Shown: piece by piece, positions 3,941-28,486 of the stretch
Numbering within the stretch: position 1 is the first letter of the stretch
Layout of the letters: each line of letters starts with the position of its first letter
From: Anaerolineae bacterium
Lineage (GTDB): Bacteria > Chloroflexota > Anaerolineae > Aggregatilineales > Phototrophicaceae
Length of the DNA: 64,000 nucleotides
Direction: 5' to 3'
Assembly (NCBI GenBank): GCA_051117475.1
Contig: JBNPEE010000032.1
Location: forward strand, 5,947-69,946
Translations under genes and position numbers: made by a program
The notes under the pieces: model-generated
Told to the model about the DNA's origin: nothing
Databases searched by the model: none
The model's input: the letters and a program-made list of their open reading frames with translations, nothing else

Positions 3941-5029
3941 CTAAATCTGCTTGAGACCATTGCCTGTCAGGCAACAGACCACCCGCGCATCAGTGCCCAG
4001 ATGGGTCATGATCTGAGGCAAGCCCGCCACCGTTACCGCGCTGGTATGCTCAACAATCAGACCGCGTTTTGCGAGTGCTTGCCGTGCCTGTAGAATCGCA
4101 TCTTCGGTGACACGCACCGCACCCCCACCTGTCTCACGGATTGTTGTCAGCACTTCTTGCCCGCGCACCGGTTGATTGACCATGATGCCATCGGCGACGG
4201 TGCGCCCACGTTCATCGACGCGGGGCGGGGTGTCTGCATCTTGTTCATAGCCCTGCACCACCGGATCTATCATCTCGGATTGTACGGCAAACATCTTCGG
4301 CATCTGATGGATCAATCCAGCTTCTCTCAACAGGCGGAACCCGCGTGCAATCCCCAGAAACAGCGCCCCATGCCCGACAGGGGTCACGATCGCATCGGGG
4401 AAGTGAGGCAGGGTTTGCTCCCAGATTTCAAAACCGGCGGTGATCTGCCCCAGCAAGAAGAACGGGCTCCAGGCATGGCTGGCATAGGTGGTGCTTTGTG
4501 CGGCTTCGTGACAGGCATCAGTTTTGGCATGTTGAGCGCCCGCGACTTCTTCCAGCGTACCGCCAAACGCTTGAATCAGCGCCTTCTTGGACTCAGCCCC
4601 GTTAGCTGGCACAAAAATGCGCGATTGTATGCCCAGCGCACTGGCATAAGCCGCCACCGATGCGCCCGCATTGCCGGATGAATCGTCGATCACTTCCGGC
4701 ACATCATAGGACGCGATATGGTTCATGATCGTGGTTGTGCCCCGATCTTTATAAGAACCTGTCGGGTTCAAGTATTCCAGTTTGGCAAGCATGTCATAGC
4801 CGTTGACCTGAGTGCTGACCAGCGGTGTCATGCCTTCGCCTAGCGTGACGTGACGCTCCAAGCCTAACCATGCCCGATAGCGCCACAGCGTTGTATCTCC
4901 CATGTCGATCATCTCGCTGGAGAAGGCAGGCAATTCGGCAAAATCGAGTATGCCGCCGCACCGCTGACAACGCCAGTCGAGCGGTTCGGCAATCTCACCA
5001 CATGCGCTACACACAATTGTATGGCTCAC
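3941..5029 (-). CDS. thrC: threonine synthase-like PLP-dependent enzyme (short form with N-terminal Cys4 zinc ribbon)
   Basis: It carries the PLP-lysine motif NPTGSYKDRGTT, the LWRY..LGEGMTPL segment and a DDSSGNAGASVAAYA glycine-rich loop. The N-terminus has CSAC...CQRC. Length is 362 aa. Confidence 0.8.
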   Translation of the reverse strand: MSHTIVCSACGEIAEPLDWRCQRCGGILDFAELPAFSSEMIDMGDTTLWRYRAWLGLERHVTLGEGMTPLVSTQVNGYDMLAKLEYLNPTGSYKDRGTTTIMNHIASYDVPEVIDDSSGNAGASVAAYASALGIQSRIFVPANGAESKKALIQAFGGTLEEVAGAQHAKTDACHEAAQSTTYASHAWSPFFLLGQITAGFEIWEQTLPHFPDAIVTPVGHGALFLGIARGFRLLREAGLIHQMPKMFAVQSEMIDPVVQGYEQDADTPPRVDERGRTVADGIMVNQPVRGQEVLTTIRETGGGAVRVTEDAILQARQALAKRGLIVEHTSAVTVAGLPQIMTHLGTDARVVCCLTGNGLKQI

Positions 5030-5951: not shown

Positions 5952-7169
5952 TCACTCATCCTTGTCGTGCAATTCCGGCGGGATGGTGATCTCTTGCTGA
6001 TTGTTCGCGGGGCGCGTTTCGGCGGTAGGATCAATGATCTCAAGATTATCCAGCACCTGCTGTGATTTGCTGATTGGAAATGGATCTAAACCGCCGATTT
6101 GTGCGCCCATCATCTTCTGGATGGCCAGCAGTTCTTGTGTGGTGATCGAACCCATCGTGTTTTCGAGGTTGTCGGTTTCTTGCGTGCCGAAAGCGCGATG
6201 AAAGGCAATGCGCTGAAACTGCACGCTAGACATATTCGCCACAATCAGCGCGTTGGGGTTGAAGCCATGAGGTAAGAAATCTCTCTGACGAATCAGCAAA
6301 ATGCTCAACAATAAAAGTGCCACCCCTGCCCATTGACCCAGCGTGAGTGAATCCCCAAGGAAGATGAATGCCAGCACGAGCGCTACACCAATTTCTGCCG
6401 CCGCCATAATTGCAGTCTGCATCCCACCTAAGATTTTGACGCTGGCGAACATCGCCAGGCGTGAGAGTGCTGTCGTCACCCCCAATACTACAATGGCAAT
6501 CCCCGCTTGTTGAAATTCGATCTGGCTCATATCAGGCGCAACCGCCAACCAGACCATCGTCACGACCACGCCCATTGTGCTTAGGATATAAAGCGCGGCA
6601 GTCGGGGCAGGCATCTCAAATAACACATATTGACTGAGGATCACCGTCCCTGCGAACATCAGCGCATTCGCTAGCATAAAGCCCACGCCCACCCAATTGA
6701 TGCCGGACGCACTCAAACCGGTGATCATCACCAGTGCGGTGAGCGCCATCATCACGCGCACGGTGGTGCGGATGTCGGTCTTTTGTCCGCCAATCCGTGA
6801 GAGCAAGACCGCGAATGCCAGATACACCCCGTTGATGAGCTGTACCAGCGAGGCATCCAGTTGTTGCAAGCCACCATAATAAAATAATGAGCCGATGCCG
6901 TTGATCGTGCCAATGACCACACAGCCCATCAAACCTGCCGGATAGATGAAAATATATTTGCGGAAGAACAGCGCATAACCGATCCACAACAGCACTACCG
7001 CAACCATCGTGCGCAAGGCGGCTACGGTGAAAGGGTCTGCTTGTGCATCGATTGCGAATTTGCCGAGTACCGGAGCCATCCCCAGAAAGATTGGCGTAGC
7101 AAAAGCGGCAATCACGCCACTCGTGCTAACTGTTGATTTGCTGTGTGCCATCGGTGCGGATTGTCTCAT
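5952..7169 (-). CDS. EamA/DMT-family transporter with ~100-aa hydrophilic C-terminal extension
   Basis: About ten hydrophobic helices are arranged as two EamA-like halves over roughly the first 300 aa. A polar tail follows (QRDFLPHGFNPN...ITIPPELHDKDE). It lies 64 nt downstream of the ThrC-REC gene on the same strand. Confidence 0.75.
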   Translation of the reverse strand: MRQSAPMAHSKSTVSTSGVIAAFATPIFLGMAPVLGKFAIDAQADPFTVAALRTMVAVVLLWIGYALFFRKYIFIYPAGLMGCVVIGTINGIGSLFYYGGLQQLDASLVQLINGVYLAFAVLLSRIGGQKTDIRTTVRVMMALTALVMITGLSASGINWVGVGFMLANALMFAGTVILSQYVLFEMPAPTAALYILSTMGVVVTMVWLAVAPDMSQIEFQQAGIAIVVLGVTTALSRLAMFASVKILGGMQTAIMAAAEIGVALVLAFIFLGDSLTLGQWAGVALLLLSILLIRQRDFLPHGFNPNALIVANMSSVQFQRIAFHRAFGTQETDNLENTMGSITTQELLAIQKMMGAQIGGLDPFPISKSQQVLDNLEIIDPTAETRPANNQQEITIPPELHDKDE

Positions 7170-7233: not shown

Positions 7234-8901
7234 TCACTTCATCTTGTGGATCAGCGTATCGACGAACGCATCATCGACGAATGACCCTTTCTGTAACATC
7301 AGGTCTGTATGCGTCTCTAAGAAATCTTTCTCACGAGCGGTCAAATCTTTGGCAGAGACAACCACAATCGGGATCGCACGTAAGCGTTCGTCGGTGCGCA
7401 TGGTCTCAATCACCGTGAAACCGTCCACATCGGGCATCATCAAATCGGTGATCACCAGATCGGGTGTGATTTCGCGGATAATTTCCAAACCTGCCGCGCC
7501 ATTGTGTGCCAGATAAACTTCGCTATTTTTGCGTGATTCGAGAATACGGCTCATCAAGCGGGCGGCGTTCTCGTTATCTTCGATGACCACCACGCGCCGC
7601 AACGGCCCCTCAATCGAGCCGACGGCATCGTGCAATGCGGCTTCCGGCACAGGAGCAGCCGTTGCAGCAGCGGATAAATCAACGGTGCGTTGCCACTTCT
7701 CACCGAGAATTTGCTTCTCAACAGGTAATGTGTGCCCTGAGCAATTGACCACCACAACATCATTCGGCTTAATGAGGCCCTTGCGCACCATGCGGATTAG
7801 TCCCGCGAAGGTCACGCCGGTTGCTGGCTCAACTGAGATGCCATCCAACCGCGCCAACAGGCGAATGGCGTTGAAGGCTTCTTCATCGCTTGCGGCTTCA
7901 AAGTGCCCGCCGTTCTCCTGGACGTAATCATACAGGATTTCATAGGCGCGTCCGGGATTGCCGGTTGCCAGCGTGACGATCACTGAATCCGAATTTTCGA
8001 GCGGGGTGGCAACCCGTTGGCCGCGTGCATAGGCTTCGACCATCGGCGCACAGCCTGCTGATTGGATCATACCGTATGCTGGCTTTGTGTCGATCAAGCC
8101 GAATTCGTGCATCTCACGGAAACCTTTCGCCAGCCCAATTGGCCCCAGACCGCCCGAAACACCCTGCAAGAACCAATCCGGTGCACGCCAGCGTTCGCCA
8201 TTCTCCAGCTCTGCACCCAATTGCTCGGCGATCTCATACGCCATGGTCTTCATCGCTTCAGTGGCGGCGATGCTTTTGATGCCCTTATCGAGGAACAATC
8301 CCTTGTTGCGGGCGAAGTTCGCCGCCAGCTCTTTGGTCTGGTCATAGGTGCCAGTGGTCTTGATGATCTCCGCGCCGTAAATCGCTGCCTCACGCATCTT
8401 ATCGTTAGGGGTGAGTGCCGGGAAAAATGCCCACAGATGCATCCCTGCCCGCGCTCCATATGCCGCGTAGGCAATAGCCACGTTGCCCGTACTAGCCACG
8501 ACCACCTCATCAATGCCCATCTCTTTCAGTGCAGTGATGGCTACTGTTGCCTGCCGATCTTTGAAGCTACCTGTTGGCCCCTGACGTTCGTCTTTGATAT
8601 ACAGGTTGTTCAAGCCAAGGCTTGCCGCTAGATGCTCGCTCTTGATGAGTGGCGTACCGCCTTCGCCCATCGAGACCACGTTGCTCATATCGTAAATTGG
8701 TAACACTTCGTGATAACGCCACAGCGTATCCGGGCGGTTTTTGAGATCAATCAACCATTGCTGAACGTCGATTTGATCGAGGTTATACCGCGCCTCCATG
8801 ATGGTGTCGCCACACGCCGGACAAGCCCCCGTGAAGCCCTTAAAATCAGTGATGGTATGGCAGTTGGTGCATTCCAACAGAATTTGTTGCTTTTGCGTCA
8901 T
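7234..8901 (-). CDS. threonine synthase-like PLP enzyme fused to a C-terminal response-regulator receiver domain
   Basis: The N-terminus has a Cys4 ribbon (CTNC...CPAC), followed by LWRYHEVLP, GEGGTPL, the PLP-lysine motif GPTGSFKDRQATV and ASTGNVAIAYAAY. The last ~121 aa (nt ~7237-7599) form a CheY-like receiver: VVVIEDNE, DLVITDLMMPDVDG, IVVVSAKD, LQKG. The start is 8 nt after the stop of the giant kinase. Confidence 0.88.
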   Translation of the reverse strand: MTQKQQILLECTNCHTITDFKGFTGACPACGDTIMEARYNLDQIDVQQWLIDLKNRPDTLWRYHEVLPIYDMSNVVSMGEGGTPLIKSEHLAASLGLNNLYIKDERQGPTGSFKDRQATVAITALKEMGIDEVVVASTGNVAIAYAAYGARAGMHLWAFFPALTPNDKMREAAIYGAEIIKTTGTYDQTKELAANFARNKGLFLDKGIKSIAATEAMKTMAYEIAEQLGAELENGERWRAPDWFLQGVSGGLGPIGLAKGFREMHEFGLIDTKPAYGMIQSAGCAPMVEAYARGQRVATPLENSDSVIVTLATGNPGRAYEILYDYVQENGGHFEAASDEEAFNAIRLLARLDGISVEPATGVTFAGLIRMVRKGLIKPNDVVVVNCSGHTLPVEKQILGEKWQRTVDLSAAATAAPVPEAALHDAVGSIEGPLRRVVVIEDNENAARLMSRILESRKNSEVYLAHNGAAGLEIIREITPDLVITDLMMPDVDGFTVIETMRTDERLRAIPIVVVSAKDLTAREKDFLETHTDLMLQKGSFVDDAFVDTLIHKMK

Positions 8902-8909
8902 GTTGTGTC

Positions 8910-11900
8910 CTATTTTTTCTTGCCGTTTATGTTCAGGTACGCCCGCACATTATCGAGGAAAATATCATACTCCTCCTGACTAATATCGGTTTTGTGTAGC
9001 ACATGAATATCAATCAGTTGTTCTTGTTCAGCATTGCTCAGATCCATCTCGCCCGTGACGACCAGTACAGGGATCTTCGCTGTTTCAGGATTATCGCGCA
9101 GTTCATCCAGCACTGCAAAACCATCTTTGCCCGGCATCCGTAAGTCGAGGATGATCAGATCAGGGCGACGGCGAGCCACCAGTGAAATGCCTTCATCGCC
9201 ACTGTTGGCGCTATAAATCTTGAAGTCGCTGTTTTCTTCTAACAGTTGCGTCAACAGGCGGATGGTCTCCGGTTGATCGTCGATGATCAAGATGCGTTCG
9301 CGCTGGCTCTCTTTCTCGGCTTCTAGTACAGCTTCCAGCACATCATCGGGTAGGAACGGACGTTGGATGAAGGTGTGCGCCCCCAGACGATAGGCGCGTT
9401 CGCTGTCCTCATCAAGTGTGGTCACGACCACTGGAATATCGAAGGTATCATCGCGCTCTTTCAGGTTCTTGAGCAGGTTCCACCCCGCACCATTGGCGAA
9501 GTTCACATCGAGGATCACCACACTCGGGCGCAATTGCCCGATCATCGCTTCGGCAAATGCAGGGAAATCTGCTGTGGTGACTTCAAAGCCTTCGCGTTGT
9601 AGGATGCGCCGGAACTGATCGACCATTTTCTTATCATCTTCGACCAAAATCACATCGCGCTTTTGAGTGACCATCGGGATGTTCTGCGTGATATTGGTAT
9701 CAATCCGCCGGCTTTGCGCCCTCTGCACTTCTTGCGTTTCAGTGGCTTCGGGTTGGTGTTGTTTATGACGCGCATTGTTTGCCATCTGCTTGGCTTTTTC
9801 GACATCACTACGGCTAATCAAACCGCTGGCAGTGTCATTAGTGCCGTTGGGTTGGCTATTCTGTGCGATCGGTTTTTGCTTCTGGCGTTTTTCCTGTTGC
9901 AGACGTTCCAGTGTCGTGTCTGCGCCTTCGTAGGTCGGGATCGTCACGCTGAAGGTCGAGCCGACGTTGACTTCTGATACCACAGTCAGTTCTCCGCCTT
10001 GCATCTCAGCCAGCGATTTTGAGATCGGCAAGCCTAAACCCGTTCCACCGACAGTGCGCGTCAATGAGTTATCAACCTGCCGGAATTGCTCGAAGACCGT
10101 TGGCAGGTCTTTCTCGGCAATCCCCATGCCTGTGTCGATCACATCAACACGGATCATCGGCCCTTCCTGCCCTTCAACTGCGTACACATCAATCGTGACT
10201 GTGCCTTCCTGCGTAAACTTGATGGCATTTGTCACCAAGTTCAGCAGAACCTGCCGACTACGCATCTCATCGCCGTAGACCTTCGGCAGACCTTCGGCAA
10301 CTTCTACTAACATTCTCAGCTCTGGTTTCTCTTTCAACAAACCAATCGCAATTGATTTCACACTCTCTACCAGTGGTTTCATATCAAAGTAACCGAACTT
10401 GAGGTTGAGTTCGTTGGCTTCGATCTTCGCCTGATCGAGAATGTCATTAATCAAGCGTAGTAGATGGTTACCGCTATTGTAAATAGTGGTCAAATCTTGT
10501 TCTTGCATCTCGGTTAGAGGCCCGTCGATGCCTTTGAGCATCACGCGGCTAAAGCCGATGATCGAGTTGAGCGGTGTCCGCAACTCGTGCGACATACTCG
10601 CGAGGAATTGGCTCTTGAGACGATCCACCTCGCGCAATTGCTCTACCGATTCCTGCAATTGCTCAACCAACAAGGTATTCTGGATGATCGCGCCAATTGA
10701 CCCTGCCAGCGCCTGCAACAGCGTCAGTTCGTCGCCACTGTAGGCATTCAAGCGGTGGCTTTCTAGTACGATGATGCCCACCATCTTCACACCGGAGGTG
10801 ACCGGCACTACCACCGCTGATTGCGCTTGCGTGCTGATCGGCATGTAGCGGATTTCTTTTTCTACGTTGGGAATGATCTGCGGACGCAAGGCAACTGCCA
10901 CGATACCGAGCATATTCTCAGCATCGTTTAGTTCTATGCTAGGGATGCTGTTGATTGTGATGTCACTCTGGCTATCGATAGCCGCCACCTCGATCAATTG
11001 CTTGCGATTGCCATAGTAATCTTCGTAATCCTGTGGCAGATACATCGCGACGACGTCGGCGCGACTATTCTCGCGGACGCGGTTGGCGACGTAAGCCAGC
11101 GCTTCATCGAGTGTATCCGCCGACGCGGCTTCTGAGGTGGTATCGAACAAGAAGCGCATGTTCTCGGCGCTAGCTTGTGTACTCTCGTACAGACGCGCAT
11201 TGTCAATCGCGACTGCGATTTGTGATGCGAGCGTGGTCAACACCTGCACATCTTCATCAGTGAAGGCGTTCGCTTTGTTGGATTGTACATCCAGCGCACC
11301 CACGATCTCACCTTTGACTACCATCGGCAACGCCATCTCAGAGCGCGTCATCGGCAGGTAGGGGTTGGGGCGATGCACTACTTTGGCGTCAGCGGTATCC
11401 AGCGCGATGGTTGGCTCGCCCAGTTCAGTCACGCGCCCGATCACCGATGATGATCCACGTTCAAGACGGTGAGCAATTTCCAGCAATTTCTGACCGGCTT
11501 CGCCTGTGCTGGCGCGTAACACCGCCCAGCGATTGTCGCTATCCATCAAGAAGATCTGAACATGATCGTACTTGAACTGTTGCTTGATAAGATCCACCAC
11601 CTGTGGCAACAGCACATCGAGATCGAGAATTTGTCCGACGCTCTGGCTGATGACCGCTGAGGTCTGGAGCTGGGTGGCACGTTGTTGCGTCTGTTCAAGC
11701 AAGCGTTTGGCTTCGAGCGAGAGTGAAGTCTGCTCGGCGAACGCCTGGAAAATACGCTCATCACGTTCATCATAGCTATATGGTTGATTTGAACCGAGCC
11801 AGATCACACCAATTGCGCGGTTGGTCACGCGCAGGGGCATGATGACCACCGAGCGCGTGTCGAGGCTTTCAAAGCTGGTTTGCTCCATCGGATTAAGACC

Positions 11901-14900
11901 GTATTGTTCATCATAGATATCATTGATCATTAGCACATGCGGGGTAGCGAGTTGCGCCCATGCCGGGAATTGTTCATAGTTGAATGATACGCCCAACAGA
12001 TCAAGGTCTATGTCAGATTGCCATGTGGCGACCACCTCAACCGTCGCAGCAGCTTGATCCCAGCTCGGACGATCCAACATCGCAATGAAGACCTGATTGA
12101 TATGTCCTTCGATCAGGTGTGTAGTGATTACGTCGATGATCTCTTCCGGTTCTGAGGTGTCGATCAACGCCTTGGATGCCTGATACAGCACGCTCGTCTC
12201 TTGCAGAGTACTCTGAACCTGACTGAGCAAGGACTGGTTATCCAGTACCACACTGGCGCTATCTGCGATGGTACTCAGATAGCGTTCTTCGCGGGTTGCG
12301 AATGTGCGGGGTTGCGTGTAGCCAATCAACAAACGCCCGCCTAACTCGCCCTGAATGCGTAGATTGATCGCCGCAAATGATAGGATATTCCCTGCCTGTG
12401 CAATTTCAACCTCAAATGGGCGGAGTGTACTGCGCGTGATATCTGCAACGAACAGACCGTCGCTACGCGGGAGGGGCAGTTGCATCAGCGCGTCGAGGTC
12501 TAAGCCGTTGGCTTCGCTCTCCTCAAAGCCAGATTTGAACATCACAGTCGGGTTGCCATCGCGAGCTAGCACGTAACCGGCACGCATATCCGGATTGAGT
12601 CCTTCTAACAGCGTGTCAATCGCTTGATACAGTTCTTCTGGATCACGGGCGCGACTGATCGAGGTGTTGGCATTATAGAGTGATTCCGTCTCTTCGAGTG
12701 CTAAGCGCGTGCTCTCAACTAGATAGAGGTTATCAATCGTTTGACTGGTCATATCCGCGATACTGTTGAGCGTGCGCTCTTGATCGAAGCCAAATGCTCC
12801 CACGCGCTCATCAATCAGCATCAACCATCCCAAGGGTTGCTGACGGCTACGCACTGTCAGAGGCATCACCAGCACCGAATGTGCGCCTGCTTCCGTGAGT
12901 ATGTGCCGCGCATCCTCGTCGAGCGTCTTATCTCGCGTAACATCTTCGATGTTGATCTCGTTGTTGTTCAAAATCGTGCCTAATGCGTCGATGTGGGGTA
13001 GGGGTTGTACCAGACTGCGTGCTAATTCGATTCCGTCATCATGATTGAGGAACAGGTGAATATCTGTCGTTTCTTGCATCGCTAACTGAGCGATTAATTC
13101 ATCGAGCAGATTGTCCAGCGTGTCAGCTTCGGTCAAGCCCTGTTGTGTCTCGTAAAGCATCACGGTCTCGCGCAGGTTCTCTTGCATGGTGTATTCCATA
13201 CTACGCAGGGTGCTGATATCCTGAAATGCCGCCACAATTGCGCGTAAGTTCTGGTTGCTGTCGAAGATCGGTGCCGCGCTGATGAACAGATCAACCTGAT
13301 GATCGTCGGATTGGATCACGATGTCATCTGCCGGCGCAACCTGTACACCTGTGTCGCGCACGATATACATCGGCAGTTCATCATCAGGATAGCCCCGGCT
13401 TGTGCCCGTGCGGTACATGCGATAATCACTCGCTGAGAAGGGCTTATCGAACAGAACCTCTTGCCCCAGTAATTGCGAGGCAATCGCATTGGTTGAAACA
13501 GGCTCTAGCGTGACAGGATCGAGCACCATCACACCCACCGGCAAGGTTGCCAGAATTTCATCGAGGCGTTGGCGTTCGTATTGTGTCTCGCGCAGGAGCA
13601 GCTGGTTCTCGATAGCAATCGTCACCTGATCGGCAATAGATTGCATGAAGCGCGTGTAATCTTCGGTGAGCAATCGCGGTTGATCGGTGCGGATAATCAG
13701 CACACCAAACCAACGCGAACGTGACCACAACGGCGCAATGACTGCGCTGCTAGCCTGATCGGCACTCAGAATCTCGCGCACCATTGGGAAGTCATCCGGC
13801 ACAGTATTCAGATCACGATAGACCAATAGACCGTCGTCGTTATTGGCGATCATCATGCCGAACGGCGCATCTTCTTGCGAGATGATCGTGCCTGTTTCAA
13901 TCTGTGGGGGTTGAGTGGGATCACTGTGCCACGTATATTCATAGCGCAATTGAGGCGCATGTAAACTTGGCTCCGGTTGTGCGAGCAGAAGCGTCAGCGA
14001 GATGTTCAAATCCTCATCACTGCGAGCACTCTGTTGGATGAAGGGTAATGCGAGATGACCGGCAACCGCGTCGTAGATGCCCTGTGTATCCTGCGCACTA
14101 GAGATGGCACGGGTGGCGATATAGAGACGGCGTACTTCGCTCAATGCCTGTTCGGTCTGTGTCAACAAGCTACGGTTCTGAATTTGTGTGCTCATCTGAC
14201 CGGTCAGCGCACGGTAGACTTCGTAATCATCCTGTGAAAGATCGTACAGATCGCGATTGACGATATAGAATATCGCAATGGGTGTATTATCGCTGAATAG
14301 CGGGAAAATCGCCATGAATTTGTAATTGAGATCGCGCATCCACTTGACCGCGGGCGGCACATCTTGAATATCTTCGCCAGGATCGACCAGGATTTCCGGC
14401 TCGCGCTGGCGCATCGGTGAATGTTCTGGCACGAAGAGCGGGTGTATTTCGTTGGCTTCTTGCACGTCACCCTGTGCCGATTTGGCAATGATGCGCGTCT
14501 GGTCTGTCCAATCGTCATGGACGGTCTCACCATCGAGCAACGCCAACCAGAAATCGAGATTCGGCTCGCTGGCGGTAGCCACCGCCGCAAACACTAGATC
14601 CAATAGGCTCTGCGAGGTGTTGATGATACGGCTGGCGGCGTAGAGTTTCTCCTGCCGCGTGAGTGCATCTTCGGTCTGTTGGAGTAGCAAGCGGTTATCA
14701 ATTGCCACACCCGCCTGTGCGATAAGGGCGTTGTAAATGCGCATCTCACGCTGGCTGAACAAGCGCCGTTCTGCGAAGGAGATCGTCATGAAGCCCTTCC
14801 ACGATCCGCGCATGTTCAATGGGATAACAATCAGTGAAGCGGCGTTGACGCTCTCGAAAAGCTGGCGCAAATCATCGCGCATCAAGCCTTGCTTCTGAAC

Positions 14901-17279
14901 ATCGCTGACTGCGACGACTGTCTCACCTGATAAATCTTTCATGAACGGGTAATGTGAGCGTTGCAAACGTCGCCCTAATAGCGAACTCTCTGCCTGTCTT
15001 TGAATCGCTAGATCAACCGTGATGTACAACCAGTCTGGCGTTTCACCCGGCAGAATATCATCGAATAACCACACCTGACCGCCGGAGGCATCGTTAGCAA
15101 CAGTGACAATCACCGCCTGTAGCACGTCTTCGAGATCGTTGGCTTCGTTCAATTGTCGGCTCAATTCATACAGTACCGATGTCTCGGCTAACGAGGTCTG
15201 CGTTTCCTGGAACAGACGCGCATTCTCAATCGCAAGCGAGACACGGTCTGCCACCGATTGCAAAATTTGCTGATCAGCATCGCTGAAGGCTTGTCCCTCC
15301 GGCAGATCTGCTTGCAAACTACCGACAATTTGACCGCGAATGCTAATATCTGCTTGGATCTTGGGCTGTTCAAGGGGTGCGCCATAAGACTGCTTGAGGT
15401 CTAAGCGCGATTCAAGCTCTTGCCATGCGTCCCGCGTTAGTTGGCGATTGAGCTTATCAATCTGCGCGATACGACGGTTACTCTGTTCGCGCAATTGGGC
15501 ATTATAGATCGCCACTGCTAACTGATCCGCGAGGAGCTGATACGTCGGGATATCTTGTGTGAGGAAAACCTGCGGAAGACGGCTCTGAATATCAAGCACG
15601 CCCAACAGCGCATCGCCAATCAGCAAGGGTAAGCCCATTTCAGCACGGGTTTCACCGAGCAAGGGATTAAAGCTGTGCGGGTCTTCTTTGCCTTCTAAGG
15701 TATCGTTGACAATCACTGCCCGTCGTTCAGCAGAGGCTGTACCGATCACCGTCTCTGAGCCAATTGCCAATTGATGTCCCTGTTCGATCAGGGCTTGTCC
15801 CGCTTCACCACGGCTATAGCGCAAGACTGCATAAGTCTGTGATTCGTCCAACAAGAAAATCTGGGCATGATAGAAACCCAGTTCGTTACAGATTAAGTTG
15901 ATGGCACGGTTGGCAAGTGTGTCGAGATCAATCAGTGTTGCAGTCTCGCGCCCGATGCGCCCTGCAACCTGCATATCACGGTTACGGCGCTCAGTCGCTT
16001 CATCAAGTTCTTCACTGAGGCGGTTGAGGCGCGTGCGGATGCGCCGTACAGCTCTCACGAATTCAACCTGATCACCGGTGGATTGCACGGTAATCGCACT
16101 ATCACGCATGGTAGTTTGCATCAGCGTATCGGCTTCATAGAGTGTATCGAGGCGCGGTTTGATGACGCGTTTGATACCCGTCACTAACAGAATAGGCAGA
16201 ATCATGCCGAACAGCGCAATCCCAAAAATCTGATACAAGGTCGGTGTATAATAGCTGATCGCATTATCGCTCAATATGAACGCCCAATTGAGCGGAACCA
16301 CGTTCTCGTAATTGCTCACAATGCTAGAGTAGAGCAGATTATTGTTCAAACGTTCCGCAATTTCTGTTGTGCCCGTCAGCGTATCGTCGAAGCTCAATAA
16401 TGTTTGATAATGAGCATCTGTTTCGATATTACCTCCCAACGCCGATAGATTGCGCAGGTAGGTAACACCTAATGCACCACTATCGGCGATGACACGGTCA
16501 TCATCCACCATCCAAATCACGCGCCGCGAATCACTGCCACTCGTTTCATCAACCAGATCGCCCACAGCCAGATTAACGATATTGCGTAACTGCGCTGTGT
16601 TGATTTGCAATTTGATGACCATCGCCGGCGTGGTATTATTGGTATAAATCGGCAAGAAAGCATCGACTAACACCACCGGCGTTTCAGCGTCAAGGTCTTG
16701 CAGGTAAAAATCACCCAGCGCGATCTCGCGAGTTGCGCCTGTTACAGCTAGATTGAACACCTCGGCTGATTCGGGCGGCGCGGTGTACGATGTGTCCACC
16801 GGATACACGAAAACGGATGAGGATGTGTTGTTGAGTACGCCGCGTTCGAAGGCGAGGAAGGGCTCACCATCCCTGATTTCGATGAATTGTACGGCTTGAT
16901 AAACGCCCGGATTTAACCGAATAATCTCCCCCGCACGCAAGGATGCCGCTGCGACGTTGGGCGTGATCAGGTGTTCACGCAAGCCTCGATCATTGCCCAA
17001 GCCGGTTAAATCCGAATAATAGCGATCAAGTTCGGTCTGCACAGCGCGCTCTACGCGATTAAGCCCACCCTCATGTTGCAAGGTGAGTTCTTCATAGGCC
17101 GTTGCCATAGTTGTTGAGATGCTGAGCGTGGTGAAGATGATCGCCGCAAGGCTAACCCCAATCCCGATCAAGCGCATGACCTGTTCAAGATAAGGGTTGT
17201 TGTCGGTACGATATGTCAGCGTTGGTTGGTCAGTTTGTTGTGTTCTCTGGTTCATAGTTGCTCCAACATCATAGCTCAC
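8910..17279 (-). CDS. giant hybrid sensor histidine kinase (TM - extracytoplasmic domain - TM - ~10 GAF-like modules + PAS - HisKA - HATPase - 2 receivers)
   Basis: 2789-aa ORF. TM helices at LIGIGVSLAAIIFTTLSI and IFGIALFGMILPILLVTGI flank ~290 aa. Repeated GAF-like modules each end in an [EDQ]N-x-x-L helix. A PAS-like segment reads LPVGVMVLDPVTLEPVSTN. The H-box is SMSHELRTPLNSIIGF, with the His codon at 10587-10589. N/G boxes are NLVTNAIKFT, DTGMGI and GGTGLGLPISK. Receivers lie at ~9297-9659 and ~8913-9296. The start is ambiguous: GTG 17279 overlaps the upstream stop as GTGA, while ATG 17255 has GGAG 5 nt upstream. Confidence 0.92.
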   Translation of the reverse strand: MSYDVGATMNQRTQQTDQPTLTYRTDNNPYLEQVMRLIGIGVSLAAIIFTTLSISTTMATAYEELTLQHEGGLNRVERAVQTELDRYYSDLTGLGNDRGLREHLITPNVAAASLRAGEIIRLNPGVYQAVQFIEIRDGEPFLAFERGVLNNTSSSVFVYPVDTSYTAPPESAEVFNLAVTGATREIALGDFYLQDLDAETPVVLVDAFLPIYTNNTTPAMVIKLQINTAQLRNIVNLAVGDLVDETSGSDSRRVIWMVDDDRVIADSGALGVTYLRNLSALGGNIETDAHYQTLLSFDDTLTGTTEIAERLNNNLLYSSIVSNYENVVPLNWAFILSDNAISYYTPTLYQIFGIALFGMILPILLVTGIKRVIKPRLDTLYEADTLMQTTMRDSAITVQSTGDQVEFVRAVRRIRTRLNRLSEELDEATERRNRDMQVAGRIGRETATLIDLDTLANRAINLICNELGFYHAQIFLLDESQTYAVLRYSRGEAGQALIEQGHQLAIGSETVIGTASAERRAVIVNDTLEGKEDPHSFNPLLGETRAEMGLPLLIGDALLGVLDIQSRLPQVFLTQDIPTYQLLADQLAVAIYNAQLREQSNRRIAQIDKLNRQLTRDAWQELESRLDLKQSYGAPLEQPKIQADISIRGQIVGSLQADLPEGQAFSDADQQILQSVADRVSLAIENARLFQETQTSLAETSVLYELSRQLNEANDLEDVLQAVIVTVANDASGGQVWLFDDILPGETPDWLYITVDLAIQRQAESSLLGRRLQRSHYPFMKDLSGETVVAVSDVQKQGLMRDDLRQLFESVNAASLIVIPLNMRGSWKGFMTISFAERRLFSQREMRIYNALIAQAGVAIDNRLLLQQTEDALTRQEKLYAASRIINTSQSLLDLVFAAVATASEPNLDFWLALLDGETVHDDWTDQTRIIAKSAQGDVQEANEIHPLFVPEHSPMRQREPEILVDPGEDIQDVPPAVKWMRDLNYKFMAIFPLFSDNTPIAIFYIVNRDLYDLSQDDYEVYRALTGQMSTQIQNRSLLTQTEQALSEVRRLYIATRAISSAQDTQGIYDAVAGHLALPFIQQSARSDEDLNISLTLLLAQPEPSLHAPQLRYEYTWHSDPTQPPQIETGTIISQEDAPFGMMIANNDDGLLVYRDLNTVPDDFPMVREILSADQASSAVIAPLWSRSRWFGVLIIRTDQPRLLTEDYTRFMQSIADQVTIAIENQLLLRETQYERQRLDEILATLPVGVMVLDPVTLEPVSTNAIASQLLGQEVLFDKPFSASDYRMYRTGTSRGYPDDELPMYIVRDTGVQVAPADDIVIQSDDHQVDLFISAAPIFDSNQNLRAIVAAFQDISTLRSMEYTMQENLRETVMLYETQQGLTEADTLDNLLDELIAQLAMQETTDIHLFLNHDDGIELARSLVQPLPHIDALGTILNNNEINIEDVTRDKTLDEDARHILTEAGAHSVLVMPLTVRSRQQPLGWLMLIDERVGAFGFDQERTLNSIADMTSQTIDNLYLVESTRLALEETESLYNANTSISRARDPEELYQAIDTLLEGLNPDMRAGYVLARDGNPTVMFKSGFEESEANGLDLDALMQLPLPRSDGLFVADITRSTLRPFEVEIAQAGNILSFAAINLRIQGELGGRLLIGYTQPRTFATREERYLSTIADSASVVLDNQSLLSQVQSTLQETSVLYQASKALIDTSEPEEIIDVITTHLIEGHINQVFIAMLDRPSWDQAAATVEVVATWQSDIDLDLLGVSFNYEQFPAWAQLATPHVLMINDIYDEQYGLNPMEQTSFESLDTRSVVIMPLRVTNRAIGVIWLGSNQPYSYDERDERIFQAFAEQTSLSLEAKRLLEQTQQRATQLQTSAVISQSVGQILDLDVLLPQVVDLIKQQFKYDHVQIFLMDSDNRWAVLRASTGEAGQKLLEIAHRLERGSSSVIGRVTELGEPTIALDTADAKVVHRPNPYLPMTRSEMALPMVVKGEIVGALDVQSNKANAFTDEDVQVLTTLASQIAVAIDNARLYESTQASAENMRFLFDTTSEAASADTLDEALAYVANRVRENSRADVVAMYLPQDYEDYYGNRKQLIEVAAIDSQSDITINSIPSIELNDAENMLGIVAVALRPQIIPNVEKEIRYMPISTQAQSAVVVPVTSGVKMVGIIVLESHRLNAYSGDELTLLQALAGSIGAIIQNTLLVEQLQESVEQLREVDRLKSQFLASMSHELRTPLNSIIGFSRVMLKGIDGPLTEMQEQDLTTIYNSGNHLLRLINDILDQAKIEANELNLKFGYFDMKPLVESVKSIAIGLLKEKPELRMLVEVAEGLPKVYGDEMRSRQVLLNLVTNAIKFTQEGTVTIDVYAVEGQEGPMIRVDVIDTGMGIAEKDLPTVFEQFRQVDNSLTRTVGGTGLGLPISKSLAEMQGGELTVVSEVNVGSTFSVTIPTYEGADTTLERLQQEKRQKQKPIAQNSQPNGTNDTASGLISRSDVEKAKQMANNARHKQHQPEATETQEVQRAQSRRIDTNITQNIPMVTQKRDVILVEDDKKMVDQFRRILQREGFEVTTADFPAFAEAMIGQLRPSVVILDVNFANGAGWNLLKNLKERDDTFDIPVVVTTLDEDSERAYRLGAHTFIQRPFLPDDVLEAVLEAEKESQRERILIIDDQPETIRLLTQLLEENSDFKIYSANSGDEGISLVARRRPDLIILDLRMPGKDGFAVLDELRDNPETAKIPVLVVTGEMDLSNAEQEQLIDIHVLHKTDISQEEYDIFLDNVRAYLNINGKKK

Positions 17280-19570
17280 TGCGCTGTGTCGTCAGGATGG
17301 TTGCCGTTCGGATAAGCATTATAGCCGTTGCCGTTACTGCTGTATCCGTCACTGGTAATCGCATCACCCAGGCGGATCGCTACCTGTGGTGTGCGTAAGG
17401 CTTGCTCGATCTCACGGATGGCGGTCTCCAAGATGGACTCGATGTCCGTCTGACTGGTGAGCTTCGTCGAAATATCGTTTACCATTCGCTCCCGCTCAGT
17501 TGCTTGCTGGCTGGCTTGGAACAAGCGTGCGTTCTCAAGGCTGATGCCTAACCGCGCCACCAGCTCTTGTGCTAGCAAGACCTTGTTATATTCAAATTCG
17601 CCTTCCGGCACTTCGTATTCAATCACACCCAGCACTTGATCACGCAATTTGACCGGCACAACGAAGGGGATTGTGTTACGGTCAGTTGCTTTGCCGACAA
17701 CCGCTTCGCCCGTTGTCAACACCTGTTCACGTAGCAGGTCGAAGTCATAACCCGTGTGCACACCGGAGGTCACCAGCAGGTCAGATTGCCGTTGTTGATA
17801 GAGATATTGTTGCCATGCACGGCGCGTCTCGCGAGCGCGTTCAGCTTGTACGGTCGTTAGCAGGCGTTCGGATTCCGTGTAGAGACGTGCGTTCTCAATC
17901 GCAATTGTGATCTGATCAGCGAGTGTCTCTAGCGTCGCAATTTCATCTGCATCAAAGCTGTTGCTCTGCTTACTTTGCACGTCTAACGCCCCGATGATTT
18001 TATCGCCTAAACGCAGAGGAATCGCGAGTTCTGCACGGGTTTCGCTCAAGAACTCGTTCTGACGATGCACGTTACTCTCGGCTGTATCACGCGCCACGAT
18101 CACCTGACCTTGCTCGGTCACCTGACCAATCACACTCACGCTACCCACACCAAGTTTGTGCCCGCGTGCCAGCAATTCCTTCCCTGCTGAGCCGGTACTC
18201 GCGCGTAACACAGCATATTTGCTTTCTCCATCCACCATGAATATTTGTGCGTGGTAAATGTTCGAGAAGTTATCGGTGATGAGCGTGACAACTTGCGTCA
18301 TCAGCTTGTTGAGATCGCGCTCACTGGTCACTGTTTTGGCAATATTCTGCGTGATTTGTACGTCACGAGTACGGTCTTGCAAACGACGCTCCATGTCGGT
18401 GATCAAATCGCGGGTGTATTCTCGCAGGTCAACAAAACTAGTCGCAAGATCACCTAGCTCATCCCCGCGTGTGACCGCGTTTACAGGGGTGTCGAAATCG
18501 CCACGGATCACTGCGAGGATGGCATCGCGCAGATTGCGGATTGGTGGGATGACTAGTTGGTTGGCAACCAACAAACCAATCAATACGACGAATATCGTGA
18601 ACGCCAGCCCGAACACAAATGCCTGCCCGATGAATTGCTGGCGTACCACGTTGAATGCCGTACTGGTGTTGGCTTCAGTCACCAGCGCGAATTGTTGATT
18701 GTCAATGGTGATCGTTGACGTATAGCCTGCGACCTGCCGGCGGGTCGTCTCATCATCGCCCACATCATAGATGCTCACACTGCTGGCACGGTTGCTGAGT
18801 GCGCGCTGTGCGCCTACCGAGTTCACATCGAACAAGGCATCATCGATCACATTTGAGGGGGCGATGATAACATTCTCAGCGCCAGTTGGCACAATCAAAT
18901 AAGCGTACAAATCCAATTCATTTTCGTTGGCATCGGGCACTAAACTATCGATGAACACGGTCTCGATGTCCAGCGTAACCAGCAAATAACCGCGTAACTC
19001 AGATGTACCATCTGCACTTACAGCGCGCACTGCGGTGAGAATTGACCAGCTGGGTACATTACCGTCATTGTTGACGATGAAAACTTGTGTGTCAGTTGTT
19101 CCGCTCAATCGGTCTGCATACTGGCTGATGAGGGCACGCTGATCTTGAATGTCTGCTTGTTGGAGTGGGGCATCGCCTGCAATCACGCTCTGACGATATT
19201 GTAGATCAAGCAATTGTGCGCTTTCGAAGAAGGGTTGCTCGATCAACTGTGTGTTGAGTGCCTGTTCAAGATTACCCGCTACATCAGCGAAGGCTAGCTC
19301 CGGATTGTCACTCTCGACCTCTAATTGTAAGTTCATCAGCGTGCCGTTGACCGCGATAAACTCACTGATGTTACTCAGCGTTGTTTGAATGTTGCGCTGG
19401 ATGGCGCTCTCACGGCGCGTCCCGTTCTCGGTGACGGAGCGCTCTAAGTTGGTAATTGTGATACCACTGACCGTCTGGAACATCAACACGCCCAGCAGAA
19501 TTAACGGCAGAGTAACCGCTACAACGATGATTGCGTTGATCTTTGTCGATAAACCGAAATTGAACGTCAT
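17276..19570 (-). CDS. membrane sensor protein: TM - extracytoplasmic (Cache-like?) domain - TM - HAMP - GAF - accessory module - C-terminal stub; no output domain
   Basis: TM1 is IIVVAVTLPLILLGVLMF, followed by ~270 extracytoplasmic aa and TM2 (FVFGLAFTIFVVLIGLLVANQL). A HAMP-like segment reads PPIRNLRDAILAVIRGDF...GDELGDLATSFVDL. The GAF signature is IYHAQIFMVDGESKYAVLRASTGSAGKELLARGHKLGVGSVSVIG. The ATG overlaps the upstream stop (ATGA). Confidence 0.88.
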   Translation of the reverse strand: MTFNFGLSTKINAIIVVAVTLPLILLGVLMFQTVSGITITNLERSVTENGTRRESAIQRNIQTTLSNISEFIAVNGTLMNLQLEVESDNPELAFADVAGNLEQALNTQLIEQPFFESAQLLDLQYRQSVIAGDAPLQQADIQDQRALISQYADRLSGTTDTQVFIVNNDGNVPSWSILTAVRAVSADGTSELRGYLLVTLDIETVFIDSLVPDANENELDLYAYLIVPTGAENVIIAPSNVIDDALFDVNSVGAQRALSNRASSVSIYDVGDDETTRRQVAGYTSTITIDNQQFALVTEANTSTAFNVVRQQFIGQAFVFGLAFTIFVVLIGLLVANQLVIPPIRNLRDAILAVIRGDFDTPVNAVTRGDELGDLATSFVDLREYTRDLITDMERRLQDRTRDVQITQNIAKTVTSERDLNKLMTQVVTLITDNFSNIYHAQIFMVDGESKYAVLRASTGSAGKELLARGHKLGVGSVSVIGQVTEQGQVIVARDTAESNVHRQNEFLSETRAELAIPLRLGDKIIGALDVQSKQSNSFDADEIATLETLADQITIAIENARLYTESERLLTTVQAERARETRRAWQQYLYQQRQSDLLVTSGVHTGYDFDLLREQVLTTGEAVVGKATDRNTIPFVVPVKLRDQVLGVIEYEVPEGEFEYNKVLLAQELVARLGISLENARLFQASQQATERERMVNDISTKLTSQTDIESILETAIREIEQALRTPQVAIRLGDAITSDGYSSNGNGYNAYPNGNHPDDTAQ

Positions 19571-21219
19571 GACGTGACCTCACCCTCACCAATGACCTGT
19601 ACGTCGGGTTTGAGGCGGATCTGTGTTTGTACTGCGCCCAATGCCTCATTGAAGTTTTGCGCGGCTAATTCTAGTACGGTGTTAATATCTGTCGATGTTA
19701 GGAGCAAATTGCCGATCTGATTGGCTTTGCTCTCGCGTTGTGCCTGTGCTTGGTTTTGCTCAAATAGGCGCTTGTTTTCCAGCGCGAGCGAGAGCCGTTG
19801 TACCACGTTCTGGATGAGATCATGCTCGCGGGCGTTCAAGCTGTCATTGCCTGCCGGCAAACGGAAAGACATCGCGCCGATGGTCTGCTGGCGTAACTGG
19901 ATGGGCACACGTACCACTTGCTGATCGCCATCCTGCTCAACTGTGATGTCGCCGGTAGCGAGTGCGCTTTGAAGATCATTACCCATGCTGGTGGATTCGA
20001 CAGGCTCAGCAGTCAAAGAGGGCAGATCATAACCCAGATGTGATACGCCCAACTCTTTGAGATAGGTTGTCCAGCTCTCAGTTGTGGTCTGGCGCTCAGC
20101 ATCTTCATATTGGCGGATGCGTTGACGCTGGCGCTCAATTACAGCGTCTTGTTCTTGAATGTTCTGGCGCAAGTTGGTGATCAAGCGCGATTGTGCGAGT
20201 GATTGCCCCAGTTGTAACGCGACCATTTGCAGTGTTTGCAATTCTGTGGTCGCAAAGCTGTTTTGATCTTCACTCTGCACGTCAATGATGGCGATGACTT
20301 GCCCCTGTTGATCGGTGACAGGAATTGCCAGTGCGCCCCGCGTGCCGGTCAGCAGGTGCTGGCGCAGTAAGATGTCGTCACTCTCCTCAATTATCAGCGT
20401 TTCGCCACGGCGCATCGCTTCATGTAGACCACTACGTGTATCTAAAGTCAGTTTACTCTCGATGTTGATCTGTTGTAAGTTCAAGCCACTCTGGACACGT
20501 TGTACAATCTCCCCATTATCAACCATATAGACGCGGGCGAACGTGTAGCGCAATTGGTCGCGAATGATCGAGATGGTGGTGAAGATCGCACGGCGTTCAT
20601 CGCTCTCCTGACGTGTCGAGAGCGTGCCTTCGATGATTTGCTGTAGGCGGTTGCGCTCAGTGATGAACTGTGCCGCCGCCTGCTGAATCGTCGTGCCAAA
20701 CATGAATACCAGTACATTGAGGGTGAATAGCAAAATAGTTGCCGTGAAGAACTGCTCCGGTAGGTTGTTGTTGACCAGTGTTGGCCCTGTTAGCAAACCG
20801 ATGACTACCAGGAAGATCAGCACTGTAGAACGCCGTCCCAGCAACAGACCTGCGGTCACGATGGGCACGACGTAAGTCAATACCAGCACATCTGCAATCG
20901 TCTCTGCACTCCACAAGCCTAACGGTGAGATCAAACTCATGCCAAGGATGCCGAATGCCCCGATCCGGTAAAAGCCCTGACGCACCATCCCGAATAATAT
21001 CAATACCAGAAACGGGCTGAGTATGCCGAAAACGCTTGCAGTGTTCAGGTCAATTTCTGGCAGGGTATTGATGAACTGTGCCGTCAGAAAGACGGATGCA
21101 ATCACCGCAATGACAAAACCTGCCATCAAATATAGCAATAAGCTCCGCACCTGTTGCCATCTGATCGGGTCATCGTATGTCCCACGGGGTTGAGTGAGAG
21201 CGTATAATCTATTGAACAT
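19567..21219 (-). CDS. polytopic membrane GAF protein (paralog D), no output domain
   Basis: The preferred start is ATG 21219 (MFNRLYALTQ), with GGAGG 8 nt upstream. The longer ORF to 21393 would overlap the preceding gene by 185 nt. The protein has about 6 TM helices with a VRQGF motif, then a GAF-like domain, a coiled coil, the accessory module and the conserved C-terminal tail. Confidence 0.85.
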   Translation of the reverse strand: MFNRLYALTQPRGTYDDPIRWQQVRSLLLYLMAGFVIAVIASVFLTAQFINTLPEIDLNTASVFGILSPFLVLILFGMVRQGFYRIGAFGILGMSLISPLGLWSAETIADVLVLTYVVPIVTAGLLLGRRSTVLIFLVVIGLLTGPTLVNNNLPEQFFTATILLFTLNVLVFMFGTTIQQAAAQFITERNRLQQIIEGTLSTRQESDERRAIFTTISIIRDQLRYTFARVYMVDNGEIVQRVQSGLNLQQINIESKLTLDTRSGLHEAMRRGETLIIEESDDILLRQHLLTGTRGALAIPVTDQQGQVIAIIDVQSEDQNSFATTELQTLQMVALQLGQSLAQSRLITNLRQNIQEQDAVIERQRQRIRQYEDAERQTTTESWTTYLKELGVSHLGYDLPSLTAEPVESTSMGNDLQSALATGDITVEQDGDQQVVRVPIQLRQQTIGAMSFRLPAGNDSLNAREHDLIQNVVQRLSLALENKRLFEQNQAQAQRESKANQIGNLLLTSTDINTVLELAAQNFNEALGAVQTQIRLKPDVQVIGEGEVTS

Positions 21220-22903: not shown

Positions 22904-22908
22904 GTGGG

Positions 22909-24567: not shown

Positions 24568-24569
24568 AA

Positions 24570-26687: not shown

Positions 26688-26719
26688 ATGAGTATTTGCT
26701 CCTGCTTAAAAGGCTGAAT

Positions 26720-27142
26720 TCACTGCCATTCCCACACTTGTTCACCAGCGAGCAAGCGTTTGATTTGATCGGGGAAACGGTCAGGATCGAGTGGCTTACC
26801 CAGAAAACCATCAAAACCGCTCTTCTGAGCGCGACGCATCTGATCTTCGCTCGCTTCGGCGGTCACAGCACACACGATGGTATCTTGCAACTTCGGGTTC
26901 GAGCGTACTTTTTGTAATGCCTGATAGCCATCTTCGTAGGGCAAGCGAATATCCATCAAGATCAAATCGATGCGTGGCAAGGTCTCGGCAAATTGTACCA
27001 CCTGCCAACCGGACGTCTTCCATTCACAGCGTTGCACACCCATGAATGCTAACATCCGTGCAATCAGAACAAAATTCGGGACATTATCCTCAACAACTAG
27101 CACATGTGCTTCGTTCGGTTCAATAGCGTTTAATTTTGACAT
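26720..27142 (-). CDS. single-domain response regulator (receiver only)
   Basis: Receiver motifs HVLVVEDN, DLILMDIRLPYEDG, VCAVTAEA and LGKP are present. Length is 140 aa with no output domain. AGGAAG precedes the ATG. Confidence 0.9.
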   Translation of the reverse strand: MSKLNAIEPNEAHVLVVEDNVPNFVLIARMLAFMGVQRCEWKTSGWQVVQFAETLPRIDLILMDIRLPYEDGYQALQKVRSNPKLQDTIVCAVTAEASEDQMRRAQKSGFDGFLGKPLDPDRFPDQIKRLLAGEQVWEWQ

Positions 27143-27154
27143 GACTTCCTTTAC

Positions 27155-27514
27155 CTAGAGATACTGTGATAATTCCTCAACAAAAGTATCAACTTCTATC
27201 GGTTTGCTGATATACCCGTCACAACCCGCTTCGAGGATCATCTCACGATCTCCATGCATAGCATTGGCGGTGAGGGCGATAATGGTCAGATTAGCAATGC
27301 CTGGAATGGCACGAATGCGATTCGTTGCTTCCAACCCATTCATATCCGGCATCGCAATATCCATCAAGATTAAATCCGGCGGGTTGCTCTCAGCCATGTT
27401 AATACCATCCTGAGCATTGTCAGCTTCTTCCATCTCAAAGCCTTCCGCTGCCAGAATTCGTTTAACCAACAAACGGTTGGCAAAATCGTCATCAATATAC
27501 AGAATACGTGGCAT
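27155..27514 (-). CDS. single-domain response regulator (CheY-like receiver only)
   Basis: The preferred start is ATG 27514 (MPRILYIDDD), with GGAGG 6 nt upstream. Receiver motifs are DLILMDIAMPDMNG, IIALTANA and ISKP. The 21-codon upstream extension in the ORF track lacks support. Confidence 0.9.
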   Translation of the reverse strand: MPRILYIDDDFANRLLVKRILAAEGFEMEEADNAQDGINMAESNPPDLILMDIAMPDMNGLEATNRIRAIPGIANLTIIALTANAMHGDREMILEAGCDGYISKPIEVDTFVEELSQYL

Positions 27515-28435: not shown

Positions 28436-28443
28436 AACCCCCA

Positions 28444-28473
28444 GGCGGGGCGCTCACTTCGTAGCGCTTCGCC
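28444..28473. terminator. possible bidirectional hairpin between convergent cyclophilin and kinase genes
   Basis: GGCGGGGCGCT...AGCGCTTCGCC can form an ~11-bp stem, including two G-U pairs, around an 8-nt loop. There is no clear U-tract on either strand. Confidence 0.35.
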
Positions 28474-28486
28474 CGTCACTCACTCA

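Follow-up and report, generated by a model that had tools for sequence, protein, structure and literature searches.

Response regulators with an enzymatic output, such as the methylesterase CheB, the diguanylate cyclase PleD, RpfG and RssB, join a receiver domain to an effector that does not bind DNA. A second group of proteins with appended control domains are fold-type II enzymes that depend on pyridoxal 5'-phosphate (PLP): plant threonine synthase (ThrC) carries an S-adenosylmethionine-binding N-terminal region, IlvA a C-terminal regulatory domain, and CBS a Bateman module. The gene described here lies at positions 7234 to 8901 (reverse strand) of a 64,000-nucleotide stretch of contig JBNPEE010000032.1 from an Anaerolineae bacterium (Chloroflexota), referred to at its full length as the window, and encodes a ThrC-like PLP enzyme fused to a receiver. 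With CheB, PleD, RpfG and RssB the protein shares the full set of receiver residues, an adjoining histidine kinase and an effector that does not bind DNA; it differs in that the output is a fold-type II PLP amino-acid enzyme and the receiver is located C-terminal to it. Like plant ThrC (which is among its fold matches), IlvA and CBS, it has a regulatory module fused to the core, but the regulator here would answer to covalent phosphorylation by a sensor kinase and not to a bound metabolite. We see an about even chance that the protein is a response regulator with a ThrC-family PLP enzyme as output, whose product or substrate is handled by a neighbouring EamA-family transporter. Databases already contain the architecture, as unnamed or automatically named proteins, so that what we describe is no novel type of system but an uncharacterised variant of the enzymatic response regulators within a coherent, conserved kinase-enzyme-transporter module. 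In line with the original prediction, a full-text literature search found no description of a protein combining the PALP and Response_reg domains, and the papers and supplements on Phototrophicus methaneseepsis, a cultured species that carries the fusion, make no mention of the gene.

The closest described enzymes are found among the threonine synthases. Bacterial class-I ThrC (1UIM/1V7C, 2D1F, 2ZSJ, 6CGQ) have in common with the fusion protein the motif SFKDR, the S-T-G-N loop, E-x-x-K-T and a C-terminal S/T-G-H; the fusion adds an N-terminal zinc ribbon and a C-terminal receiver, and the GNAGN loop is changed to SGG[LM]GP. The zinc-ribbon ThrC of family NF006050/PRK08197 (archaeal and bacterial, including P0148, P0200 and the Halorubrum ThrC) have the same layout of zinc ribbon and PALP domain, but bona fide members keep NPxRxEG[QK]KT and GN[AG]GN, whereas the fusion family does not. 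Cysteate synthase (TIGR03844; CapA2, PDB 9K3C) is derived from ThrC and has the same overall fold (fold match E 3.8e-21); at 115.2 bits against a cut-off of 324.9 the fusion protein is not a member. Finally, a ThrC of Microcystis aeruginosa, described as a 'unique lineage', consists of about 433 amino acids with an extra N-terminal region (T9-T57) and is reported to convert O-phosphohomoserine to threonine and, when threonine is present at high concentration, to deaminate it (PMC12172450). It has no receiver and is likened to the fusion family by description only.

The gene and its parts are as follows.

7234..8901, reverse strand: ThrC-like PLP enzyme fused to a receiver; open reading frame with ATG start, 555 amino acids plus stop; Pfam PALP and Response_reg; more than 240 full-length fused homologues
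8800..8880, reverse strand: N-terminal Cys4 zinc ribbon, residues 8-34 (C11, C14, C27, C30); weak DUF7129 match
7738..8676, reverse strand: fold-type II PLP catalytic domain, residues 76-388; PALP E 2.4e-69, 234 bits against a cut-off of 35
8560..8562, reverse strand: codon of the PLP Schiff-base lysine K114 (motif SFKDRQ), aligned with K61 of Thermus thermophilus ThrC; codon position verified
7609..7722, reverse strand: inter-domain linker, residues 394-431, about 40 amino acids, predicted to be disordered
7237..7599, reverse strand: receiver domain, residues 435-555, full (beta-alpha)5 fold predicted; Response_reg at residues 437-539
7444..7446, reverse strand: codon of the predicted phospho-acceptor D486, aligned with D53 of RR468; codon position verified

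All motifs quoted in the original prediction are present in the translation, namely C11/C14/C27/C30, LWRYHEVLP, GEGGTPL, PTGSFKDRQ and ASTGNVAIAYAAY as well as IEDNE, VITDLMMPDVDG, VVSAKD and LQKG, and the span given for the receiver is correct. An assembly or frameshift artefact is ruled out by the intact fusion in more than 240 independent sequences. Residue conservation was counted in an alignment of 240 full-length fused homologues. The zinc ribbon matches DUF7129 below the Pfam cut-off (residues 8-34, E 0.0018, 18.5 bits against 30), and its four cysteines are kept in 235-240 of the 240 sequences.

The assignment of the catalytic domain to the ThrC family is consistent across profile, alignment and fold comparisons. 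The closest PDB sequences (phmmer) are the ThrC of Aquifex aeolicus (2ZSJ, E 1.2e-46), Mycobacterium tuberculosis (2D1F, E 3.7e-42), T. thermophilus (1UIM, E 9.6e-41) and Bacillus subtilis (6CGQ, E 6.9e-40), all at about 30% identity. With an AlphaFold2 model as query, Foldseek returns the same entries first (E about 1e-24, template modelling score to target 0.78-0.80), followed by plant ThrC and cysteate synthase CapA2; the top 22 matches (E 1e-24 to 1e-19) are ThrC except for cysteate synthase at rank 18. The original prediction asked for catalytic and PLP-binding residues in a proper alignment, and these are found: K114 aligns with K61 and S137-T138-G139-N140 with S84-N87 of the T. thermophilus enzyme. 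K114 is invariant (240/240), as are the lysine motif, S137, G139 and N140, with T138 present in 239; E215, K218-T219, E358-P359-A360 and S388-G389-H390 are kept in 233-240 of the fused homologues. As judged from these alignments, the PLP-binding and core catalytic residues are intact.

The C-terminal domain is an intact receiver, as had been claimed. Response_reg is matched over profile positions 1-100 of 111 with E 1.3e-17 (64.4 bits against a gathering threshold of 30.2), and the C-terminal 123 residues alone align end to end with RR468 of Thermotoga maritima (E 1.4e-15). In this alignment the acidic pair E441-D442 corresponds to D9-D10, the phospho-acceptor D486 to D53 (context LIVLDIMMPVMDGF here and LVITDLMMPDVDGF in RR468), S516 to the conserved Ser/Thr at T83, and K538 to the conserved Lys at K105. 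These positions are conserved in nearly all 240 sequences (E/D441 in 235, D442 in 235, D486 in 239, S/T516 in 239, K538 in 235), and the predicted strands 435-440, 460-465, 482-486, 512-516 and 534-537 alternate with five helices (predicted local distance difference test, pLDDT, about 70-88). The receiver is thus under selection to stay phosphorylatable. It is most similar to the stand-alone receivers RR468, CheY and DivK, with the receivers of PleD and RssB also matched. The exception is the small clade of P0127 and P0290, in which the acidic pair is changed to H-S and the conserved Lys to Ser, giving a degenerate receiver, and in which Gln occupies both 206 and 209 of the catalytic domain; the gene of this clade (L006 10001-11689) adjoins argF, argD and a pyruvate kinase gene (pyk), and no kinase gene is found beside it.

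The genomic context of the fusion gene is dominated by signalling genes on the same strand.

5952..7169, reverse strand: EamA-family (DMT) transporter, 405 amino acids; Pfam EamA in two matched stretches
8910..17279, reverse strand: giant hybrid histidine kinase, 2789 amino acids; five GAF matches, HisKA, HATPase_c and two receivers (Pfam)
17276..19570, reverse strand: HAMP-GAF protein, 764 amino acids (Pfam); overlaps the start of the giant kinase gene
19567..36335, reverse strand: signalling genes (Pfam), namely four GAF-only proteins (552-705 amino acids), two single-domain receivers (140 amino acids each) and two GAF-PAS-HisKA-HATPase kinases (1130 and 1447 amino acids)
3941..5029, reverse strand: second zinc-ribbon ThrC-like PLP protein, 362 amino acids, possibly associated; PALP E 9.7e-65

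The junction with the kinase gene reads TAG, GACACAAC, ATG, which bears out the 8-nucleotide gap reported earlier, and the upstream protein is a real GAF hybrid kinase. The fusion gene had further been described as the last of its operon. This does not hold, because the EamA gene comes next on the same strand, starting 64 nucleotides downstream, and no terminator-like site was found on that strand in the spacer. The EamA protein has no NCBIfam match and no solved relative. The genes at 19567..36335 would belong to the same functional unit, judging by strand and spacing only. Since no DNA-binding domain is matched (Pfam) by any of the 12 genes on this strand between 5952 and 36335, we take the enzyme to be the only evident output of the array; the receiver-bearing, presumably amino-acid-forming PLP enzyme and the small-molecule transporter appear to be the only non-signalling products of this sensor array of about 30 kb. 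The second ThrC-like protein at 3941..5029 is 28% identical to the fusion protein, scores below all ThrC cut-offs (best NF005035, 236 against 301) and, like the fusion protein, is without R160 and GNAGN of the canonical enzymes. Its orthologues (49-76% identity) are located 1.2-3.9 kb downstream of the fusion gene in five other loci (L036, L039, L050, L051 and L071).

The linkage is retained in most relatives. Window neighbours were searched by tblastn against 85 loci, and a neighbour was counted, where enough sequence was available, if on the same strand a kinase homologue ended at most 1 kb upstream or an EamA homologue started at most 2.5 kb downstream of the fusion gene. A homologue of the giant GAF kinase is found directly upstream in 62 of 77 loci, so the proposed tie to the GAF kinase is kept, and an EamA homologue is found downstream in 52 of 75. 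In 42 of these 52 loci a REC-HisKA-HATPase gene (about 415-430 amino acids; REC, receiver; e.g. L001 11902-13188) is inserted between the fusion gene and EamA, and in the remaining 10 EamA follows directly, as in the window. The window lineage has lost or never had the intervening kinase, because positions 7170-7233 are a 64-nucleotide spacer only. Gene calls on P. methaneseepsis and other long contigs give the order HAMP-GAF, giant kinase, fusion gene, optional REC-histidine kinase, EamA; the HAMP-GAF gene has the same place upstream of the kinase in a JGI contig as in P. methaneseepsis. One further long contig has a single-domain receiver in place of the upstream kinase. Variants with two receivers (L005 10001-12148 and L008 10001-12127; 44-46% identity) follow a large GAF/PAS kinase (2753 and 1312 amino acids, respectively), with single-domain receivers and a GNAT acetyltransferase downstream instead of EamA.

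The fusion forms one orthologous family across the Anaerolineae. In a search of 5.8 billion proteins, more than 120 clusters matched at 70-100% identity; every one of them has PALP and Response_reg, with sources named as Anaerolineae, Phototrophicales and Aggregatilineales metagenome-assembled genomes (MAGs) and the cultured P. methaneseepsis. After clustering at 50%, the fusion is left in only about seven representative clusters, two of them two-receiver variants of 708-715 amino acids. A scan of one genome per GTDB species left 80 full-length loci (55-87% identity), nearly all labelled Anaerolineae, Aggregatilineales, Phototrophicaceae, Ca. Flexifilum or generic Chloroflexota; the outliers are one Pleurocapsa MAG and one 'Bacteroidetes' MAG. 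A division into two paralogous fusion subfamilies (555 and 548 amino acids) was considered and rejected, as the distant copies have the same synteny of kinase, fusion gene and EamA.

The data show the identity of the domains, the conservation of catalytic and phospho-acceptor residues, and the synteny; we infer which kinase phosphorylates the receiver, whether the switch activates or inhibits, what the substrate is and which way it is transported, in the following scheme. Signals perceived by GAF-domain sensors would be passed to the adjacent giant hybrid kinase, with the small REC-HisKA-HATPase kinase also taking part in most relatives, and the phosphoryl group would end on D486 of the C-terminal receiver. 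Phosphorylation would probably alter the packing of the receiver on the catalytic domain, or dimerisation, by way of the flexible tether of about 40 residues, and so turn the enzyme on or off, much as C-terminal regulatory modules gate other enzymes of fold type II. The enzyme would carry out a PLP-dependent replacement on an anionic amino-acid substrate, most likely the reaction of O-phosphohomoserine to threonine in a non-canonical basic pocket (D205-[K/R]206-G-I-K209-S210), and the co-transcribed EamA protein would carry the product out or a precursor in. The probable function of the module is to make an amino acid under phosphorylation control and to couple its synthesis to export. The targets commonly assigned to two-component systems are transcription or second messengers; if phosphorylation gates the enzyme, the locus would provide direct post-translational control of amino-acid synthesis, and probably of secretion, by a sensor kinase. 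Filamentous bacteria that abound in activated sludge and in sediments belong to the Anaerolineae, and P. methaneseepsis is the one cultured species available for testing.

Several observations weigh against this reading. No Hpt domain is seen in the window (Pfam), and the phosphoryl route from kinase to receiver is thus not evident. The AlphaFold2 model, built with a 38-sequence family alignment as input (mean pLDDT 75, predicted template modelling score 0.65), has no confident inter-domain contact, with pLDDT below 50 in the linker. In about 10 of 75 loci the gene adjoins neither a kinase homologue nor EamA; in the examined loci of this kind kinases or unrelated genes are found, and none of the threonine pathway. 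The conservation of the PLP domain (mean identity to the window protein 74%, range 66-84% across the class) is of a housekeeping level that would also fit a role in core metabolism. At the positions of T88, N154, S155, R160 and N188 of T. thermophilus ThrC, which we take to be the substrate-phosphate binders in the analogue complex 1V7C, the window protein has V141, K206, G207, A213 and G250, that is, all five are replaced. Lastly, TIGR00260 scores in the fusion family are about half of those of bona fide ThrC.

The missing Hpt domain is also compatible with an inverted role of the two parts, in which the PLP domain serves as an input: it would bind an amino acid and modulate gain or loss of phosphate by the receiver, making the protein a metabolite-sensing node or a phosphate sink in a phosphorelay. 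As in hybrid kinases, the receiver forms the C-terminal end; it resembles stand-alone receivers most, and the cluster is rich in receivers, with two in the kinase and two as single-domain proteins. The catalytic and PLP-binding residues checked are, however, invariant in 240 sequences, which argues for catalysis over mere binding; a metabolic output agrees better with the conserved transporter next to the gene; and the receiver evolves faster than the PLP domain, the linker being the least conserved segment after the zinc ribbon. We consider such an input role highly improbable.

As for the reaction, the substrate site of the enzyme is not canonical. The five solved ThrC that were aligned all share the motifs N-S-x-N-x-x-R-x-E-G-Q-K-T and G-N-[AL]-G-N, with ASTGNT in the four bacterial enzymes and ASTGDT in Arabidopsis; the five phosphate-site positions are invariant among them except for D at the position of T88 in A. 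thaliana. Scoring these residues against ThrC, as the original prediction had proposed, gives a negative result for the canonical set: V, K/R, G, A and G are found instead, and the replacements are family-wide. The motifs of the 240 fused homologues read S-F-K-D-R-Q, A-S-T-G-N-V, D-[KR]-G-I-K-S-[VI]-A-A-x-E-x-M-K-T and Q-x-V-S-G-G-[LM]-G-P. The stretch D-[KR]-G-I-K-S contains a different basic pair that hardly varies (K/R206 in 232, K/R209 in 236 of 240). An altered anion pocket may therefore persist, which fits an anionic group on the substrate.

Profile scores lead to a similar picture. The window protein reaches 167.0 bits with TIGR00260 (cut-off 167.1) and 280.3 with NF006050 (cut-off 303), the latter being its top NCBIfam model; every other ThrC model is far under its cut-off. 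Six family members that were scanned score 144.4-173.9 with TIGR00260 and 215-309 with NF006050, with P0127 giving no TIGR00260 match at E 1e-40, as compared to 279-337 and 305-362, respectively, for the canonical-motif zinc-ribbon enzymes P0148 and P0200. Some orthologues exceed the TIGR00260 cut-off (such as P0410, 170.0, and P0316, 169.7), and P0284, a copy without receiver, exceeds that of NF006050 (308.8 against 303). Since the scores straddle the curated ThrC cut-offs, some orthologues carry the PGAP name 'threonine synthase' and others are called 'pyridoxal-phosphate dependent enzyme'. Cut-offs for dehydratases and ammonia-lyases (IlvA, TdcB) are not reached (best NF006390, 75.1 bits against 421). 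Of the earlier assignment as a threonine-synthase-like PLP enzyme, the family therefore stands, but the label 'threonine synthase' is insecure because the protein scores under the cut-offs of both TIGR00260 and NF006050. The sequence evidence describes the catalytic domain as a divergent member of the ThrC lineage for which threonine synthase activity is plausible, not secured; given the replaced phosphate-site positions and scores just under the ThrC cut-offs, its product may be threonine or a related amino acid. We note that the annotation of this subfamily as threonine synthase is flagged hereby as one of borderline scores and an altered substrate site.

The same data bear on a housekeeping role, in which the protein is the only ThrC of its lineage, the receiver is a regulatory appendage that tunes threonine flux, and no dedicated part in export or signalling exists, EamA being a bystander or an overflow valve. 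Top profile matches to ThrC equivalogs near their cut-offs, passed by P0410, P0316 and P0284, are in favour, as are the many members named threonine synthase by PGAP and IMG, the conserved PLP domain, the single orthologous group across the Anaerolineae, and the position of the P0290 clade next to argF, argD and pyk. Furthermore, ThrC-like proteins with the canonical Arg motif exist that are fused to an allosteric LeuA domain, and activity on O-phosphohomoserine has been reported for a zinc-ribbon ThrC from cyanobacteria (PMC12172450). A tblastn search for a canonical ThrC in 90 loci (1.6 Mb, covering the loci only) has the fusion gene as its sole match. A search with P0148, the nearest canonical-motif relative, returned proteins of Acidobacteria, haloarchaea and mixed metagenomes, among which no Anaerolineae partner could be linked. 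On the other side are the replaced phosphate-site positions and the strong, conserved linkage to a transporter and a sensor kinase, which is unusual for a core biosynthetic gene; neither hom nor thrB is among the genes called in eight loci, although thrC frequently lies apart from them. Taken together, a housekeeping role seems rather unlikely.

A different consequence of the replaced site would be a new function. The substrate would then not be O-phosphohomoserine but another amino acid, undergoing deamination or dehydration (of threonine or serine) or a beta- or gamma-replacement, with a dedicated metabolite, possibly a signal, exported by EamA. The PLP-phosphate loop S-G-G-[LM]-G-P is nearer to the GGGGL of dehydratases than to the GNAGN of ThrC. 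The window protein lies under every curated ThrC cut-off, and the linkage to EamA, the GNAT neighbours in the two-receiver loci and the second ThrC-like paralogue that recurs nearby would all suit a distinct metabolite. A zinc-ribbon ThrC of Microcystis is, moreover, reported to deaminate threonine (PMC12172450). Conversely, the models for dehydratase, cysteine synthase and cysteate synthase are matched much more weakly than those for ThrC (at most 75 bits; 115 against 325 for the last), the near-invariant basic pair stays in the loop that binds phosphate in ThrC, and the loci with called genes contain no accompanying biosynthetic genes that would hint at a natural-product pathway. We regard a new function as quite unlikely. 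The most far-reaching version of the module is one that senses, synthesises and secretes: GAF sensors would phosphorylate a re-purposed ThrC-like enzyme, and a modified or non-proteinogenic amino acid would be exported by EamA to serve filamentous Anaerolineae as a public good or as a signal between cells. If true, one and the same protein would be both autoinducer synthase and response regulator, a speculation that we hold to be improbable.

The closest copy without a receiver, P0284 (L007 5239-6507; 54% identity), is located on a cyanobacterial contig and adjoins a phycobilisome-linker gene. Because its best relatives are Anaerolineae fusion proteins (58-66% identity), P0284 looks like a transferred copy that has lost the receiver. 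For the same reason its membership in the characterised Microcystis ThrC lineage was rejected; the Microcystis enzyme is absent from the 120 best relatives of P0284. A full-length copy with a REC-histidine kinase neighbour is found in the Pleurocapsa MAG (L069 10001-11683). Both copies suggest transfer from Anaerolineae to cyanobacteria or, for L069, mis-binning.

Other zinc-ribbon ThrC-like proteins carry different C-terminal domains: some of about 611-622 amino acids with the canonical Arg motif end in LeuA_dimer, an allosteric/dimerisation domain, and another group of 499 amino acids ends in a PadR DNA-binding domain (representatives of the two groups are P0163, P0176 and P0197). These domains occupy the position that the receiver has in the fusion protein, and C-terminal regulatory modules thus recur in this lineage. 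In the window, a gene of the Exo_endo_phos family (5178-5945, forward strand) is convergent with the EamA gene, and a homologous gene of 255 amino acids is found at most 7 kb from the module of P. methaneseepsis.

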